From Clostridia bacterium (GTDB lineage Bacteria; Bacillota; Clostridia; Christensenellales; UMGS416), in assembly GCA_016938675.1 (NCBI GenBank), contig JAFGUF010000014.1, forward strand, positions 6,668 through 70,667: 64,000 nucleotides of DNA, given 5' to 3'. Positions 9,558 through 16,955 of this stretch are shown piece after piece. A program made the position numbers and the translations under genes. The number at the start of each line of letters is the position of its first letter. Positions within the stretch are counted from its first letter, which is position 1. A model generated the notes under the pieces. The model made no database searches. It had not been told where the DNA came from and saw nothing but the letters and a program-made list of their open reading frames with translations.

Positions 9558-10325
9558 ATGACAGTATCAGCCAACGATTACATCCATCCGCAGGACAAAG
9601 CAGCTCTGGACAATTTCAAATCCATACCATTTTTCACAACGTTACTAAAATCCTTCATGAGTTTCTTCAGTGAGCAGATGCTTCACGGAGTAAGCATGGC
9701 GCAAAAAATCAGGCTTTCTGATAAACAGCTTCCGGAGATTTATAATCTCCTGCCGCCAATAGTATCAGCTCTTAACATTAAGGAGCCCGAATTCTACCTT
9801 GAGATGTCCCCTATTCCCAATGCATATACGCAAGGGTCTACTACCACATTTCTTACGGTGACCTCGGGGCTGCTTGAGTACCTGGACGAAAATGAGCTGC
9901 GCACAGTTTTAGCCCACGAATGCGGACATATTGCCTGCAACCATGTGCTATACCACACGATGGCGATGTACATTTTCAATTACGGCGTGGTCAACATGGG
10001 CATACTCTCCAATGCGGCATTGCCCCTGCAGATTGCGCTGTATGCGTGGATGAGGAAAAGCGAGCTTTCGGCAGACAGGGCGGCAGCCGTCGCTATGGGC
10101 GGGCCGAATCAGGTAGTGGAGACAATGATCAAGCTCGCAGGAGGGCCGGAATCCATAACTAAGAATATAAATATTGAAGAATACATAAAGCAGGCGGATG
10201 CCTATGACAAGATAAAGACCGGGTCTTCACAGGACAAATTCCTGCAGTTTCTTGCCAAGACATCCGAAGACCACCCGTTCTACGCCGAGAGGACAAGGGA
10301 AATACTCGAATGGTGCAAAACTTAG
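9558..10325 (+). CDS. M48-family zinc metallopeptidase (soluble, HtpX/Ste24-like fold)
   Basis: HECGH at 9915..9929 plus a downstream SELSADRAA glutamate ligand motif. 255 aa. Confidence 0.75.
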   Translation: MTVSANDYIHPQDKAALDNFKSIPFFTTLLKSFMSFFSEQMLHGVSMAQKIRLSDKQLPEIYNLLPPIVSALNIKEPEFYLEMSPIPNAYTQGSTTTFLTVTSGLLEYLDENELRTVLAHECGHIACNHVLYHTMAMYIFNYGVVNMGILSNAALPLQIALYAWMRKSELSADRAAAVAMGGPNQVVETMIKLAGGPESITKNINIEEYIKQADAYDKIKTGSSQDKFLQFLAKTSEDHPFYAERTREILEWCKT

Positions 10326-10346
10326 CAGTACAGTAGAATTATCAAC

Positions 10347-10439
10347 ATGCCGCTGACAAAAGGCAATACCTGCCCGCATTGCGGCGGCGCACTGAAAGAT
10401 GACTGGAAATTCTGCCTTTCATGCGGCAGCAAACTGTAG
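10347..10439 (+). CDS. 30-aa zinc-ribbon mini-protein
   Basis: Below the ORF-track cutoff. Own translation gives MPLTKGNTCPHCGGALKDDWKFCLSCGSKL*, with two CxxC pairs. It lies 21 nt after the M48 stop and 9 nt before the next start. Confidence 0.5.
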   Translation: MPLTKGNTCPHCGGALKDDWKFCLSCGSKL

Positions 10440-10448
10440 GAGGATAAG

Positions 10449-10724
10449 ATGATAAAAAGTTTTTTTGATGAAGCAACAGGCGTGTTCAACATAGACGAAC
10501 ATATAATGGGCAGAGAAAGCTTCAAAAAAATATTAGACGACGGCAAAATAACAAGCGATGAAGTGAAAAATCAGAGCGAGCTGGTGATACAATATATAAA
10601 AAAGCTCGACAGCAAGCTCGACGATGCGGAAAAGGCCATGGTAACTGATACAATCTGCGAACTGCTGATATTATATAGCCTGTCGCAGAAAAATATCATA
10701 GACGAGTTTGAAAGGGGGTTTTAG
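10449..10724 (+). CDS. hypothetical helical protein (91 aa)
   Basis: ORF with AGGAGG 6 nt upstream. Its stop abuts the next ATG (TAGATG). Confidence 0.6.
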   Translation: MIKSFFDEATGVFNIDEHIMGRESFKKILDDGKITSDEVKNQSELVIQYIKKLDSKLDDAEKAMVTDTICELLILYSLSQKNIIDEFERGF

Positions 10725-11234
10725 ATGAGCGCGTTTTCAACAACAAAAAGTTTCCCCAATTCAGTAGAAACAGGATTGATAGTAGACGGCCTTAAGAGAC
10801 ATTTTCAGTCGCAGGGATACGAAGTTACAGCAGAGCCTATGTCCGCTGGCGGGTGGTACGTCAGCCTGAGCAAGGGCGGCACCTTTAAGTCAGTGCTAGG
10901 GCTTAAAACATCATTGAATGTAGAATTAATCAGCTACAATGATGCCCTGACAGCAACAGCCAAAGTGGGCATATTCGGTCAGCAGCTCCTGCCTTCCATC
11001 ATCACGTATTTCGTTGCATGGCCTGTAATAATCACTCAGATATGGGGCCTTGTCCAGCAGTCCAAGCTGGATGATGAGGTGATGGACTGCATCGAAAGAA
11101 CAATTAGCGAGCATAAAAGCGTGAAGCCCTCAGTATCCGTTGAAGAGGGTGCAGTCTTTTGCACGCAGTGCGGATACAAAATAAACAGCGAATTCGATTT
11201 CTGCCCCAAATGCGGAACTAAAAAAGCTATATAA
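10725..11234 (+). CDS. hypothetical protein with one hydrophobic helix and a C-terminal zinc ribbon (169 aa)
   Basis: The C-terminus is CTQCGYKINSEFDFCPKCG, with a hydrophobic segment LLPSIITYFVAWPVIITQIWGLV. It is translationally coupled to the upstream ORF. Confidence 0.6.
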   Translation: MSAFSTTKSFPNSVETGLIVDGLKRHFQSQGYEVTAEPMSAGGWYVSLSKGGTFKSVLGLKTSLNVELISYNDALTATAKVGIFGQQLLPSIITYFVAWPVIITQIWGLVQQSKLDDEVMDCIERTISEHKSVKPSVSVEEGAVFCTQCGYKINSEFDFCPKCGTKKAI

Positions 11235-11272: not shown

Positions 11273-12775
11273 TTGGAGAGCAAAAATTTCAGGTATTATG
11301 CCTTTATAAGCTACGCCCACGAGGACGAAAAATGGGCGGACTGGCTTCAGAAAGAAGTAGAAAACTATAAACTTCCTACAACCATCCACAAAGATTACGC
11401 GAACGCCCTTCCCCAAAAAGTGCAGCCGTTATTCAGGGATATCCCCGACCTCGCGGCTGGCGGCAGGCTGGACAATGTTCTTAAGGAGGAGCTTGAAGAC
11501 TCCAATTACTTGATTATAGTATGCTCGCCAAGCTCTGCCAAATCCGAATGGGTAAACAAAGAAGTACAGCACTTTATTGATATAGGACGGGAAGACCGGA
11601 TAATCCCTTTTATTGTGTCCGGCAAGCCCAACTGCGGCGAAGAAGACAGCGCGCTGGAATGCTATCCACCTGCAATAAGAGGCAGGCATATTTTAGGCGC
11701 TGCAGTAGATGGCATTGCAGATACTGCCAAGCTGTCCGGAAAGCAGAAGAAAGCAGCCAGAAAGCAAAATAGAATCATAAAAGACACAGCCAAGCTGAAA
11801 GTAATCGCCGGGCTATTAAGCGTGAAGCTGGATGTATTAGTCAGGCGGCATGAACAGAAAATAAAGCAGAAGCGCAGGTCACGAGCCGTCGCGGCCATCC
11901 TTTGCGCAGCGGTTATACTATCCGGAGCGCTTTTTGCAGTTGATTATTACGTGCCAAAAGTAAAGTACTACAAAGACTATATAGAGATATATGGAGCAGC
12001 AACAGGCATAGAGGAAATAAACGCCGCGGAGAGAGGAAGCCAGCAGTACAGCTACAGGATAACTGAGGTAAAAAACCACGTAATAAGCGTAGAGCGCGTA
12101 GATGGCAGCGACCAGCTGCTGGCGGATGAACTGCTGGGCTACACATATGATGAGATTGATATGCGCCCTGCAAAAATAGCATACGAGTATGCGGGAAGCA
12201 CGCTGAAATCCGCCCTGTATTATTCATCCACCGATAAGCCGATAGTTGAGTACTCCTACTTTGACGAGAGCACCATATACCTGAAAAGGATAAGCCCGGA
12301 AAGCGACGCTGAATTCGGAGAAAAGTACCAGATGAAATGGTCCTGCGACATGGTGAAGGACATGAGCCTGAGCGAATATGAGGATGCAGTTCTCTCCTAT
12401 GTAACCGGCTTTGAAGTCCAATACGATGTAAAGGGACGCGTTGTAACAAGGCACTACATCAATTCCAACATGGCAAGAGACAACATAGTCAACGACATCC
12501 GCCATGTTGCAGGGGAAAAATATACCTACGATGCAAATGGACGGATTGCCTCCATTAGCTTTATAGACAAGGAAGGCGAGAGCACATTCATATTTGAAAA
12601 CGGGATATCCTCTATCGAGTTTGATTATTCAGATGATACGACAGAAATTGAATACCTTGATATCATGGGTGGCCCCGTAAAAAATGAATACTATAAAATA
12701 AAAATTGATGAAAGCAAGAAGCGGGAAAAGACCATAACTTTCTATAATTATGACGGAGAAACAGCGGGAACATAG
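11273..12775 (+). CDS. TIR-domain protein with a TM helix and extracytoplasmic YD-like repeats; ends at an in-frame TAG
   Basis: N-terminal YAFISYAHEDEKWADWL...IIVCSPSSAKSEWVNKEV reads as TIR_2-like. A K/R-rich segment precedes the TM helix AVAAILCAAVILSGALFAV. Repeats follow, such as GEKYTYDANGRIASISFIDKEGE. TTG start. Confidence 0.75.
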   Translation: MESKNFRYYAFISYAHEDEKWADWLQKEVENYKLPTTIHKDYANALPQKVQPLFRDIPDLAAGGRLDNVLKEELEDSNYLIIVCSPSSAKSEWVNKEVQHFIDIGREDRIIPFIVSGKPNCGEEDSALECYPPAIRGRHILGAAVDGIADTAKLSGKQKKAARKQNRIIKDTAKLKVIAGLLSVKLDVLVRRHEQKIKQKRRSRAVAAILCAAVILSGALFAVDYYVPKVKYYKDYIEIYGAATGIEEINAAERGSQQYSYRITEVKNHVISVERVDGSDQLLADELLGYTYDEIDMRPAKIAYEYAGSTLKSALYYSSTDKPIVEYSYFDESTIYLKRISPESDAEFGEKYQMKWSCDMVKDMSLSEYEDAVLSYVTGFEVQYDVKGRVVTRHYINSNMARDNIVNDIRHVAGEKYTYDANGRIASISFIDKEGESTFIFENGISSIEFDYSDDTTEIEYLDIMGGPVKNEYYKIKIDESKKREKTITFYNYDGETAGT

Positions 12776-12778
12776 TAT

Positions 12779-14290
12779 ATGTTTTTCAGCAAAGACTACC
12801 AGCTTGAAAAGCAGGTGTTCTCCGGGACAATATTCGGCGAAAATAGCTGCAATACTATTTTTTACACATACAGAGATGACAGACTTTCGCAGATTGCTAA
12901 ATACGACGGCGAGTTCACGGGTGACGAAGACCTTGATGAACTATACGGCGACCCGAAAAGGGAATACCCTTCCTTCGAAAGCTATATTTATGAATACGAT
13001 GAGAACGGCAGCAAAGAGATCGTGCTTGTGTATGAATACGGCGAACTGGTGCTTAAAAAAACTATGGAATACTACAGCAACAACTACCTGAAATCTGAGT
13101 ATGATGAAAAGTATGATGAAAGCGGCACACTTGCGGAGTATAAAACAACCTATACATATGAATACGGCGCGATAAAGGAAATCACCAGTGAAAATACCTC
13201 ATCCAAAAGCGGAGAAGGCGCAGACGGATACTCCAAAAAAGAATACAGCTATGACAAGCTGGGCAATCTGACGGGCGTAAAGTACTTGGGCGCAGACGGC
13301 GAGCCCATCAATATTGACGCAGGTTACTCGGAATACATATGCACATACGACCTATTCGGACAGCTGCTTACATCAGAATACTATGACGAAGAAGGCCGCC
13401 CGGCGCAGGGAGAGGGATACATGGCCTATTCCGCTCAAAAGGACAAGAATGACGTAATTATAAATGAGCATTATACAGGATACCTGGAAGGCTCCGATTC
13501 CCTCATAAACAAATACATAGAGTATGATGAGCTGGGGAATGTATTGAGCATAAAATATACCGATGAGTCCGGAAACATGGTGCCAGTAGGCGAAGCATCC
13601 TACTATGAAGCGGTGCGCGAAAACGGCAGGATAACGATGGAGACATATCTCGATTACTATCCAGTAACATTTGAAATACTGCCTTATTTGGTATCTGAAA
13701 GGCTGCCTGAAGTCAAGGTGTATTATGACGACAGCTACAAGATAGAGAGCGTCACGGTGCTGGATGAAGACGGCATCATCATTCTTGAGCAGGCGTACAC
13801 AGACGGGAAAATAAGCACTGCTATAATCAAAAACCATGTTACAGCAATCTACAGCAAATTGATTCCTGTCTGCATAAGGGAATTCAACGAGTACGGAAAA
13901 ATAACATCTGAAACGCTAACAGACGAACAAGGGAACCTTACGCAGGGGGACTACTGCGCTATTCAGGAGAGCATATATGATGGCCGAGTTCTGAAAGAGA
14001 GAATCTACTATTACTACAACTCAAAATACTTTGGGCAGGTAAAAAAATATATTAAAACATACAATGAAGCGGGCTTTATCACCCATGAAAAATATATCGA
14101 CTTCAATGATGAAGTAATCTTTGAATTTGACATTGACAGCGATGTTAACCTGCAGTTTGACGGCAGCTATAAGGAAGGCTCCAAGTCCAGCTTCCTTAGC
14201 TATGACGGCACGCAGTGCACCACAGTCAGCATAAAGATAGTATCAGGCGACGGAGAAGTAATAATCGACGGCAGATACAACTTCAATTAA
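12779..14290 (+). CDS. YD-like repeat protein (503 aa), same frame as the TIR gene, no signal peptide
   Basis: Repeats such as YSYDKLGNLTGVKYLGADGEPI and TYDLFGQLLTSEYYDEEGRP. ATG lies two codons after the TAG of 11273..12775. It ends at a TAA inside a DUF4430-like domain. Confidence 0.6.
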   Translation: MFFSKDYQLEKQVFSGTIFGENSCNTIFYTYRDDRLSQIAKYDGEFTGDEDLDELYGDPKREYPSFESYIYEYDENGSKEIVLVYEYGELVLKKTMEYYSNNYLKSEYDEKYDESGTLAEYKTTYTYEYGAIKEITSENTSSKSGEGADGYSKKEYSYDKLGNLTGVKYLGADGEPINIDAGYSEYICTYDLFGQLLTSEYYDEEGRPAQGEGYMAYSAQKDKNDVIINEHYTGYLEGSDSLINKYIEYDELGNVLSIKYTDESGNMVPVGEASYYEAVRENGRITMETYLDYYPVTFEILPYLVSERLPEVKVYYDDSYKIESVTVLDEDGIIILEQAYTDGKISTAIIKNHVTAIYSKLIPVCIREFNEYGKITSETLTDEQGNLTQGDYCAIQESIYDGRVLKERIYYYYNSKYFGQVKKYIKTYNEAGFITHEKYIDFNDEVIFEFDIDSDVNLQFDGSYKEGSKSSFLSYDGTQCTTVSIKIVSGDGEVIIDGRYNFN

Positions 14291-14521
14291 GATAGCCTCA
14301 CCGCGGCCGATGCGCTGATTGCTGTGCTGGAAGAAAATGATATCACATATGCTTTGAACGGCGACTACCTGAATCACGTTGGCGGCCTCTCAAACGAGCC
14401 GCTGGCAGCATGGAACTACACTGTAAACGGCGAAGAAGGCGATAATTTCATTACAAGATATATTCTTGAGGATGGCGCCCAGCTCGTGCTGACATACCTG
14501 ATTTACTCTGATTATTATTAA
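14291..14521 (+). pseudogene. C-terminal two-thirds of a DUF4430-like domain, in frame after TAA
   Basis: DSLTAADALIAVLEENDITYALNGDYLNHVGGLSNEPLAAWNYTVNGEEGDNFITRYILEDGAQLVLTY. The W.Y.VNG...Y.L.DG motif matches my recollection of DUF4430. There is no own ATG or RBS; the track uses GTG at 14324. Confidence 0.5.
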
Positions 14522-14544: not shown

Positions 14545-15452
14545 ATGAAAAAATATTTACTAACAGGCATTTTTGTCCTGGCGTTGTTTTTAGCTGCCTG
14601 TACCCCGGATTACTCCGACGAGTACAACAGCCTATATGACGACTATGAGAATGCCTACGACGAATGGGAAAACGCGGCAGATGAATACGCCGGAAGCGAC
14701 ATCCCTGAAAATCTGGGCTCAGTTTATGCTATTGATGAGTACGGCGCAGAATTTGAAAACCTATCTGAAAGCTCCGCGGAGTTCTGCATGGACGCAACGG
14801 AGGAGCTTGAAGAATACGCAGAGGGCATAAGCGAAGATGACTACGATGATCTCTACGACGAACTGGACGACTTCGCCTCAGCAGTGGAGGAAAAAACAAC
14901 GAGTTTTTGTTCAGCAAGTATTACGCAATATTGTTCCAGGTGAATAAAGACATTGTCAAGGCAAAAGACAGCCATGCTGGCGAAGGCACAGTAAAGGGGC
15001 TTGAAATGACATGCGATGACCTTGGTAAGCTATATGATTTCATGGTGGAACTCAAGAGCGGCATATCAGCCCTTGCAAAGGATTATGACGCTGGGACAAT
15101 AGAAGACGACTATGAAATGGTGGTTAAAAACCTTAAGGAAGAAAAGGAATATTACGAGATAGCATATGAGTTCTTTGCGATGGAAGAGGAATGGTCCGCC
15201 TCTATGGATGTGCTTGCTCAGGCGGCAAGCGCAAATGACGACAGTTTCTATGACGCAGCTTTTGCAACTATAGAATTAGCCAAGGAAATCGACCCAAAGC
15301 TATATGACCTGAGCGTTCAGGCAACCGAAAAAAGAGACAGCCTGAGCAGCATTAATGCCGAAGCACGGAAGGGAAAATATGACGGCATTATTATGGCCAT
15401 AGAGACACTGATGGCTACAACAAGCGAATTTGCCGCATATGAACTAGAATAG
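14545..15452 (+). pseudogene. acidic lipoprotein split by a frameshift at an A6 run (14891..14896)
   Basis: MKKYLLTGIFVLALFLAAC carries a lipobox. ORFs 14545..14943 and 14907..15452 join as ...FASAVEEK|NNEFLFSKYYAILFQ... with a 1-nt indel. Confidence 0.55.
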
Positions 15453-15554: not shown

Positions 15555-16955
15555 CTACTCCACTATTACTTCGCATCCTGCATCCCGCAGCAGGCCTATA
15601 GTTTCGATGTTGTTCTGATACTGAATATTATCTATATGCAGCTCTTCTAAGTTTTCAAAATCAAGAAGAGGGCTAAGGTCGTCAATTGACGAATTAACAA
15701 TATAGAGGTATTCCAGCTGCGTGATCTCAAGCACTTTTTTCGCTTCACTTGAGCCCATTTCTATCACGTACAGCCTTTTAAGGTTCGGCATATCAAGCAG
15801 CGTTGATACGCTCATCAGATTGTGTCCGTCCAGTCCGACATTCTCTGCCTTGTATAGTGCTGCCAGCGGCTCAATATCCTTAATATCGTTGCCAAAGAGC
15901 CATACGGAAATGAGGTTTGTATTGTATGCCAGCGGAGATATATCCTCTATCAAATTGTTCGATAAATCCAGTGTTTCCAGCCTACCTATCTGCGACAACG
16001 GACTTATATCTTTAATGCCTAAGCTTCCTACCCATAGCTCTTTAAGGTTCTGTGCGTACTGCAGCCCTTCCAAAGAATTGATATCATTATTAACTGCAAT
16101 TATGCTGCCGTCATCTGCATCGCTTCCTTTATATTCCTTCTCATATTCCTCTGCTGATACCAAACGCAGCCTCTCAAGATTCAGCATGTCGCCTGCTGTA
16201 ATGCTCCCATTAACGGACTGCCCCTGCATTTCAAGCGTCTGCATTATTGCGCTGCGCAGATAAAAATCAGGTATATTTATAACAGTGTCCGGTGAAATGT
16301 TCGGGTCGATTAAGGCGGTAGGCTCTGGCGTCGGCGCAGATGTGGGCTCTGGCGTCGGCGCAGATGCCGCCTTGTCTGTGGCAACGGGTTCCTGTGATTC
16401 ATCAGGCGAAGCGCCTAAAAGGCTATCCCTGAAAAAATAAAGCGCTGTTCCAAGGGCTGCAGCCGCAAGTATAATAATCAGTATTGTACGCAGTCTGTGC
16501 CTTTTTCTTCTGCCTGAGTTTATTTTAATGTCCTCATTCGGCCTTGCGCCGGATTCCAGTATATCTTGCACAACTCTTGAAAGCTGCTTCAGCTTGCTGT
16601 CACTTTCAGTGCCTATTATTTCTATCCAATGCACCGTTGATAGGTAATATTCCATTTCCCCGGTGGGTTTAATGTCCTCCACTCGTACAGGCACGATGAT
16701 CTTTCCGTTGGATATGGCAAGCTCCACCTCCCTAAGCACCTGGTCGGATACATTAGAATGGGATGAGAAAACAAGGAGCAATACCTTAGCCTTGGGTATA
16801 GCCCCTGCTATTGACTTTGCCCATTTCTCGCCGGGCACTATGTCCCTTGGCGCCATCCAGCATTTAATACTGTCGCTTTCAAGATAATGGCAAATGGCGT
16901 CCCCCAGGTCTTTATCCTTATGCGAGTATGAAATAAATACATCAAAATTGCTCAT
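15555..16955 (-). CDS. TIR-TM-LRR protein (466 aa)
   Basis: The N-terminus reads FDVFISYSHKDKDLGDAICHYLE...LLLVFSSHSNVSDQVLREVELAI (TIR). RRKRHRLR precedes the TM helix TILIIILAAAALGTALYFF. A P/T-rich linker follows, then internalin-like about 22-aa LRRs (L..L.L..N.I.DISPL). Confidence 0.8.
   Translation of the reverse strand: MSNFDVFISYSHKDKDLGDAICHYLESDSIKCWMAPRDIVPGEKWAKSIAGAIPKAKVLLLVFSSHSNVSDQVLREVELAISNGKIIVPVRVEDIKPTGEMEYYLSTVHWIEIIGTESDSKLKQLSRVVQDILESGARPNEDIKINSGRRKRHRLRTILIIILAAAALGTALYFFRDSLLGASPDESQEPVATDKAASAPTPEPTSAPTPEPTALIDPNISPDTVINIPDFYLRSAIMQTLEMQGQSVNGSITAGDMLNLERLRLVSAEEYEKEYKGSDADDGSIIAVNNDINSLEGLQYAQNLKELWVGSLGIKDISPLSQIGRLETLDLSNNLIEDISPLAYNTNLISVWLFGNDIKDIEPLAALYKAENVGLDGHNLMSVSTLLDMPNLKRLYVIEMGSSEAKKVLEITQLEYLYIVNSSIDDLSPLLDFENLEELHIDNIQYQNNIETIGLLRDAGCEVIVE
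16321..16368. repeat. 2 x 24-nt tandem repeat inside the TIR-LRR gene (encodes APTPEPTS APTPEPT linker)
   Basis: ggctctggcgtcggcgcagatgtg / ggctctggcgtcggcgcagatgcc. Confidence 0.9.

Follow-up and report, generated by a model that had tools for sequence, protein, structure and literature searches.

Are three open reading frames (ORFs) that follow one another in a single frame, parted only by two stop codons, three genes, one gene that is decoded through its stops, or one gene that has been broken? The question is raised by positions 11273..14521 (+) of the window, by which we mean the whole stretch of 64,000 nucleotides (nt) that was analysed, where a large receptor-like gene beginning with a TIR domain is interrupted twice. 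Translated straight through, this interval gives 1083 codons with internal stops at codons 501 and 1006 only, TAG at 12773..12775 (+) and TAA at 14288..14290 (+). It is laid out as ORF1 (11273..12775, +; 500 amino acids (aa), TTG start), ORF2 (12779..14290, +; 503 aa, ATG start) and ORF3 (14324..14521, +; 65 aa), all in the same frame, as the initial annotation had described. That annotation had further proposed one ancestral gene, ordered TIR, transmembrane (TM) segment, repeats and DUF4430 and cut by exactly these two stops, and had listed very recent inactivation, base-call errors, a functional split and stop-codon recoding as possible explanations. The single ancestral gene is borne out by what follows, and of the four explanations it is recent inactivation that the evidence favours: the locus is very probably a young pseudogene within a decaying accessory TIR-receptor operon.

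The case does not rest on the frame. It had been held that a 503-codon frame staying open behind a stop codon is not expected by chance; counted over the whole genome, same-frame neighbours turn out to be common, with 172 pairs in which only one stop parts two open stretches, each 120 codons long or longer. Most of these pairs are simply neighbouring genes, and because there are so many of them we dropped the shared frame as evidence and rejected its supposed improbability as proof of one gene. What is decisive, in our reading of the alignments, is homology to an intact single gene. When the read-through translation, each stop replaced by X, was searched against 5.8 billion proteins, it found P0002, a protein of 1080 aa that is 83% identical over 100% of the query and carries TIR and DUF4430 in one polypeptide. 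The JGI metagenome contig that encodes P0002, L003, is colinear with the window, with the same gene order and 84.2% identity over 6636 nt. In the codon alignment the TAG at 12773-12775 faces CAG (Gln501) in P0002, a single C-to-T change, and the TAA at 14288-14290 faces AAG (Lys1004). The comparison with an ortholog, proposed earlier as a check, thus yields a relative with one intact ORF and not three genes, and, as far as a comparison of sequences can reach, the intact P0002 proves that TIR, TM helix, repeats and DUF4430 once formed one gene here.

More distant homologues tell the same story, being single proteins of 900-1565 aa with 24-35% identity over 65-88% of the query. One of them, P0003 (1565 aa), joins TIR, a YD-like region and leucine-rich repeats (LRRs) in one protein. 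A search with ORF2 by itself against the same 5.8 billion proteins, which would have caught proteins of 277-880 aa, returned only the window's own ORF. Since this search gave no relative and the homologues are single proteins, there appears to be no natural two-gene or three-gene version on record. Each of the three ORFs is a singleton cluster, known from the NCBI and Logan assemblies only, and the sole close relative of the window locus is P0002/L003. A locus search with ORF2 found nothing in metagenome contigs or genome contigs, and one with a two-sequence alignment found distant TIR relatives only in metagenomes and nothing in genomes. A search of 60 genomes of related species, two of which belong to the same genus, did not find the TIR gene; the 169-aa gene that precedes it had no close match there either, with none in the same genus and a best identity of 29% elsewhere. 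We regard the locus as accessory because neither gene has a close match in these 60 related genomes.

The domain content of the translated gene shows what the two stops interrupt. At the N-terminus, Pfam places TIR_2 (PF13676) at aa 11-118 with 58.1 bits against a cut-off of 28 (E 1.6e-15). Glu97 is invariant across 15 homologues and aligns with the glutamate of the SxWxxxE motif in TIR domains of the PDB (SEWCKYEL, SEWVKKEI), which makes it the counterpart of the catalytic glutamate of NADases; NADase activity is accordingly a prediction for this domain. A hydropathy scan gives a single TM helix (aa 203-225), preceded by the basic stretch KIKQKRRSR, and finds no hydrophobic segment and no signal peptide at the N-terminus of ORF2. 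In both respects it agrees with the earlier observation that ORF2 lacks a signal peptide and that a TM helix precedes the repeats of ORF1. RHS_repeat (PF05593) is weak in the window, at 22.5 bits in ORF2 (cut-off 22) and 16.1 bits in ORF1, and homologues carry PF05593. YD-like motifs flank the TAG on both sides, in ORF1 and in ORF2. In an AlphaFold2 model of the intact ortholog (built on a 15-sequence alignment, with a moderate mean predicted local distance difference test score (pLDDT) of 61.9) the TIR domain is followed by a long predicted helix at 156-226 that holds the TM segment, and then by a modelled series of beta-hairpins, unbroken from 229 to ~951. Gln501 would be midway along this array, with strands 485-491 before it and 506-513 after it. 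The motifs on both sides and the unbroken array together uphold the claim that YD-like repeats run across the TAG.

The second stop falls near the other end of the protein, where the C-terminal 130 residues of the model have a pLDDT below 50 and are uninformative on the DUF4430 fold. DUF4430 (PF14478) is recognised directly after the TAA, with 32.2 bits against a cut-off of 23.8 over profile positions 3-70 of 72, and is present in a single copy in the whole genome. Because the Pfam model itself begins just past the stop, the extent of the domain was taken from homologues: in a search with ortholog residues 955-1080 against 1.84 billion representatives, 38 of 56 homologues matched in one stretch running from at least 10 residues before the Lys1004 site to at least 50 beyond it. 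When this region is aligned with stand-alone lipoproteins that are homologous to it, the TAA falls after the first beta-hairpin (VxVxI...G....D) and before the conserved TAxDAL helix. By these alignments the TAA is inside one DUF4430-like domain of ~100 residues, as had been proposed, and this putative domain, of the transcobalamin beta-domain family, spans 14219..14518 (+) with the stop ~22 residues in. Both stops therefore interrupt regions predicted to fold, the TAG in the middle of the beta-hairpin array and the TAA within the DUF4430-like domain. Fragment 1 (codons 1-500; 11273..12772, +) retains the TIR domain, the long juxtamembrane helix, the TM helix and the first ~270 aa of the ectodomain. 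After the TAG (codon 501), which is followed by TAT ATG, fragment 2 (codons 502-1005; 12776..14287, +) holds the remaining YD-type beta-hairpins of the ectodomain and then the first one of the DUF4430-like domain, up to the TAA at codon 1006. Fragment 2 could be annotated as a 503-aa ORF starting at ATG 12779.

Start signals follow the ancestral gene and not the fragments. The TTG of ORF1 has AGGAG 8 nt upstream, a good ribosome-binding site (RBS). Before the ATG of ORF2 the sole element resembling a Shine-Dalgarno (SD) sequence is GGGA, 9 nt upstream, which is also present in the ortholog, and the ATG itself corresponds to an ancestral internal methionine, Met503 of the ortholog. Upstream of GTG 14324, the start of ORF3, there is no SD sequence. 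With no new RBS, no export signal and no stand-alone homologues of ORF2, the sequence bears no apparent mark of adaptation to a split.

The lesions are not confined to the receptor gene. Upstream lies an M48 (HtpX-like) peptidase gene (9558..10325, +; Pfam Peptidase_M48), in which we noticed a nonsense codon that the initial annotation had not reported: TAG 10323-10325 cuts the product at 255 aa, whereas the orthologs in L003 and in a second locus, L015, have 293 aa, with GAA (E) or D at the site of the TAG. The orphaned zinc-ribbon tail persists in frame behind it (10326..10439, +; 37 codons and the original stop), translating to QYSRIINMPLTKGNTCPHCGGALKDDWKFCLSCGSKL and then the stop, with three of the 37 residues differing, conservatively, from L003. 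After the original stop comes the RBS of the next gene. The motif CPxCG...CxxCG of the tail is also kept in L015, which confirms, by homology, that the zinc ribbon is ancestral. Downstream, an acidic lipoprotein-like gene (14545..15452, +) is one ORF of 302 aa in L003 and is frameshifted in the window, where a 1-nt deletion at ~14893, which creates an A6 run at 14891-14896, leaves pieces of 132 aa and 170/181 aa; the alignment at the deletion reads GAGGAAA-AAACAACG in the window and GAGGAAACAAACAACG in L003. In total, three nonsense codons and one frameshift affect three genes of the six that make up a 5.3-kb block.

How old this damage may be can be judged from the divergence to L003. At a synonymous divergence (dS) of ~0.6, the ratio of nonsynonymous to synonymous divergence (dN/dS) is 0.10 for ORF1, 0.18 for ORF2, 0.14 for ORF3, 0.04 for the M48 gene and 0.07 for its zinc-ribbon tail. 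Values this low throughout mean that nearly all of the divergence accrued under purifying selection, and because they are low on both sides of the stops, the loss of constraint, which seems to concern the whole operon, would be recent. Random single-base changes in these genes give stops in 4.8% of cases, with a missense to nonsense ratio of 15:1. At that rate three nonsense codons correspond to roughly 60 neutral substitutions, that is, to a drift of ~1.2% divergence with ~45 added missense changes. Relative-rate tests, which lack power for the ~1% drift expected, gave 25 window-specific against 25 ortholog-specific aa changes in the TIR gene with the nearest outgroup (P0003), 62 against 49 with ten outgroups (p 0.25), and 12 against 8 for the three upstream genes. 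The small window-specific excesses are compatible with a drift of ~1.2%, which the tests cannot resolve. Having two stops in one gene also means that at least one of them arose when the part downstream was already untranslated.

A simpler account would be that the organism has one intact gene, and that the stops and the neighbouring lesions are artefacts of sequencing or assembly. The genome is a draft in 45 contigs, the number of the Logan contig suggests, by inference only, a metagenome run, the frameshift of the lipoprotein-like gene sits within an A6 homopolymer, and the sequence past the stops has no detectable decay. Against this, in the Logan assembly of SRR13394436, 13,388 nt of a 13.8-kb contig match the window with 100% identity, and all four lesions are among them. 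Because that independent assembly is identical at every lesion, an artefact of the assembler or of polishing is ruled out, and the contig, which has no break or bubble at any lesion, suggests that no other allele is abundant. Consensus errors seldom take the form of substitutions, which three of the four lesions are, and the TAA and the M48 TAG each lie two bases from the ortholog codon and so are embedded in ordinary divergence. The lesions are also clustered in 5.3 kb, whereas the following 47 kb (window 17-64 kb) hold only long, densely packed ORFs with no sign of split genes. The suggestion of base-call errors is therefore weakened by the second assembly and by the clustering, while the part of it that concerns the reads themselves still stands; on balance we consider a data error very improbable. 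It is also unlikely that truncated ORF1 has become a selected, working product, perhaps with ORF2 as a subunit made by termination and re-initiation at TAG-TAT-ATG. ORF1 does retain a strong RBS, the TIR domain, Glu97 and the TM helix, the ATG lies 3 nt past the TAG, a stop-to-start spacing that allows re-initiation by translational coupling, and the dN/dS of ORF2 is still 0.18. Yet the ATG and the weak GGGA are ancestral and not newly evolved, ORF2 lacks an export signal though its sequence is that of an ectodomain, the TAA cuts it again inside a folded domain, no natural two-gene version occurs among the 5.8 billion proteins, and the partner genes in the operon are broken too. The functional split on the earlier list of explanations thus finds little to recommend it.

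That a full-length receptor is made by decoding TAG and TAA, through pyrrolysine, a suppressor tRNA or read-through that depends on context, we find scarcely credible. The idea draws on three in-frame stops (two TAG and one TAA) that each precede well-conserved coding sequence, and on an assembly that is 96% complete (2.62 Mb), so that a gene for the decoding machinery could be outside it. However, ARAGORN found no tRNA with a CUA, UUA or UCA anticodon among 42 tRNAs and a tmRNA. A genome profile search, following the pyl gene search that had been suggested earlier, gave 20.5 bits for PylD against a cut-off of 150 and 27.7 bits for PylS against 178, with Methanosarcina (M. acetivorans) as a positive control scoring above both cut-offs. 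Pyrrolysine or suppressor-tRNA decoding of the stops was accordingly rejected, there being no pyl genes and no tRNA that reads a stop. TAA and TAG are moreover the usual terminators in this organism, ending 35 and 23, respectively, of the 65 window ORFs of at least 120 aa (58 together). Each of the two different stop codons would call for its own mechanism, one of them, TAA, is the least leaky stop in bacteria, and the frameshift in the neighbouring gene would be left unexplained. The remaining seven of the 65 ORFs end in TGA and are mostly overlapping shadow ORFs, so that real genes nearly always end in TAA or TAG. A related idea, that the stops are tolerated or even used, with a low level of read-through or re-initiation giving a full-length or two-piece receptor and thereby a translational throttle on a potentially self-toxic TIR NADase system, retains a slender chance because there is no measurable decay after each stop; we think it a long shot.

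Several points count against recent pseudogenisation, too. The evidence for the stops is two assemblies, which probably share their reads, and not pile-ups. The window lineage has no significant acceleration, and the sequence behind the stops looks constrained, which would fit a very young pseudogene and equally a sequence that is still translated. With one close relative only, the lesions are not datable on a tree. Finally, ORF1 keeps its TIR domain, TM helix and good RBS, and the truncated product may hold residual or altered activity.

Recent pseudogenisation nevertheless remains the reading that we favour, and it can be set out as follows. The original gene would have encoded one single-pass membrane protein, with a cytoplasmic N-terminal TIR domain bearing Glu97, a long helix and one TM segment, and with ~750 residues of YD-type beta-hairpin repeats outside the cell that ended in a DUF4430-like domain. 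Two point substitutions would then have created the stops, from a CAG-like codon to TAG at codon 501 and from a Lys-like codon to TAA at codon 1006. Translation would now stop at codon 500 and yield no more than a shortened TIR-TM protein that keeps a third of the ectodomain. ORF2 could be reached only by weak re-initiation at the ancestral ATG 3 nt past the TAG; its product would remain inside the cell, where an ectodomain serves no purpose, and would be cut again by the TAA. The DUF4430 remnant lacks any start signal. The operon, consisting of the M48-zinc-ribbon peptidase, the 91-aa protein, the 169-aa zinc-ribbon protein, the TIR receptor and the lipoprotein, would be decaying as a unit, with the zinc ribbon of the peptidase lost to the third nonsense codon and the lipoprotein gene frameshifted. 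We infer that the lesions, ~1% divergence old, are fixed and neutral and result from relaxed selection. In these respects the locus resembles nonsense and frameshift pseudogenes in other bacterial accessory or defence loci, with sense codons of the ortholog replaced by stops, several lesions in one operon, a patchy distribution and remains that are still gene-like. It differs from typical accessory-locus pseudogenes in nothing essential; here the decay looks young, with dN/dS of 0.1-0.2 and no large deletions. For annotation, this means that the locus is best entered as a single pseudogene or, at the most, a truncated TIR-TM gene, but not as three genes, and that it provides no evidence for stop-codon recoding in this organism.

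As a phenomenon such a pseudogene is ordinary; the family of its intact relatives is uncharacterised and moderately interesting. These relatives define a receptor-like bacterial architecture that also awaits characterisation, a cytoplasmic TIR domain, one TM helix and a YD-repeat ectodomain with DUF4430 at its tip, and we found no description of a TIR-TM-RHS architecture in the literature, nor any mention there of the run and metagenome accessions. The order of its parts suggests that the intact protein would be a surface sensor controlling intracellular NAD+ hydrolysis or signalling by TIR, and makes the intact family a candidate surface-sensing TIR system. With bacterial TIR NADases (TIR_2; the Thoeris ThsB-type TIR, PF08937) it shares the N-terminal TIR_2/ThsB_TIR domain and Glu97, and what sets it apart from them is the fusion of TIR to a TM helix and to a large repeat domain outside the cell. 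An analogy, and no more, may be drawn with animal Toll-like receptors, which are likewise single-pass proteins with a repeat ectodomain outside and TIR inside. The TIR domain of TLR2 is the best PDB sequence match (E 9e-4), but here TIR is N-terminal, in reversed order, and the repeats are of the YD type and not LRRs, so that no homology is implied beyond the TIR domain.

The ectodomain has its own parallels. YD-type beta-hairpin repeats are shared with Rhs proteins and teneurins, to which Foldseek reports local similarity (E 1e-19 to 1e-13); because TM-scores, from a model with a pLDDT of 62, are ~0.1, the similarity supports the type of repeat but not the closed shell of Rhs cores. A regular-expression scan of P0001 and P0002 for DPxG[LWF] and PxxxxDPxG gave no match. 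Rhs toxins differ further, since the C-terminus here is DUF4430 and not a toxin domain, and the repeats would be membrane-anchored behind TIR and not secreted. As for the tip, DUF4430 is a C-terminal beta-domain of cobalamin binders and of small bacterial lipoproteins; transcobalamins carry it at the C-terminus (PMC4350170), and stand-alone lipoprotein homologues align with the window's domain over ~100 residues. It differs from DUF4430 systems of the transcobalamin or intrinsic-factor type in forming the tip of a TIR-linked ectodomain, which in this genome is cut by the TAA; a comparison of the C-terminal domain with PDB sequences gave no significant match. The ectodomain is also homologous to C-terminal regions of Ser/Thr kinases of ~1250-1670 aa (P0020, P0024, P0027, P0029-P0032 and P0035). 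The same sensor-like module thus appears, from these matches, to be coupled to either TIR or kinase outputs, and kinases of other bacteria with this type of ectodomain behind the kinase domain fit a portable sensor module.

The other genes around the receptor are intact. A 91-aa gene (10449..10724, +) has equal length and high similarity in L003 and L015, with a dN/dS of 0.03, and is followed by the gene for the 169-aa protein (10725..11234, +), which has a C-terminal zinc ribbon (Zn_Ribbon_1, E 2.4e-08) and counterparts of 169 aa in L003 and 168 aa in L015. On the far side, a convergent gene of TIR-TM-LRR type (15555..16955, -; 466 aa, with TIR_2 at E 2.2e-23 and LRR_4 at E 5.4e-18) is also found at the end of L003. 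The M48-zinc-ribbon peptidase, the 91-aa protein and the 168/169-aa zinc-ribbon protein recur as a three-gene module ahead of the TIR-TM receptor gene at window 9558-11234, L003 434-2110 and L015 1888-3563, and L015 has an extra 576-aa gene between the module and its TIR gene. Between the window and L015 the TIR proteins are 35% identical and the three-gene modules ~75%; the proteins of the module may be functional partners of the receptor. PADLOC-DB 2.0 gave TIR-level matches only (at most 28 bits) and none for the M48, 91-aa, 169-aa or lipoprotein genes, with no search aimed at ThsA, and NCBIfam models recognised nothing beyond the TIR domain.

Elsewhere in the genome, the weak match to the PylD model at G000:C2:65512-65748 (+) lies in a 480-aa open frame with one in-frame TGA, which may represent a pair of neighbouring genes, a selenoprotein or a further lesion. 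Two further TIR_2 domains were detected, at G000:C15:75825-76157 (-) and at G000:C30:37979-38260 (-), the latter in an open frame of just 216 aa.

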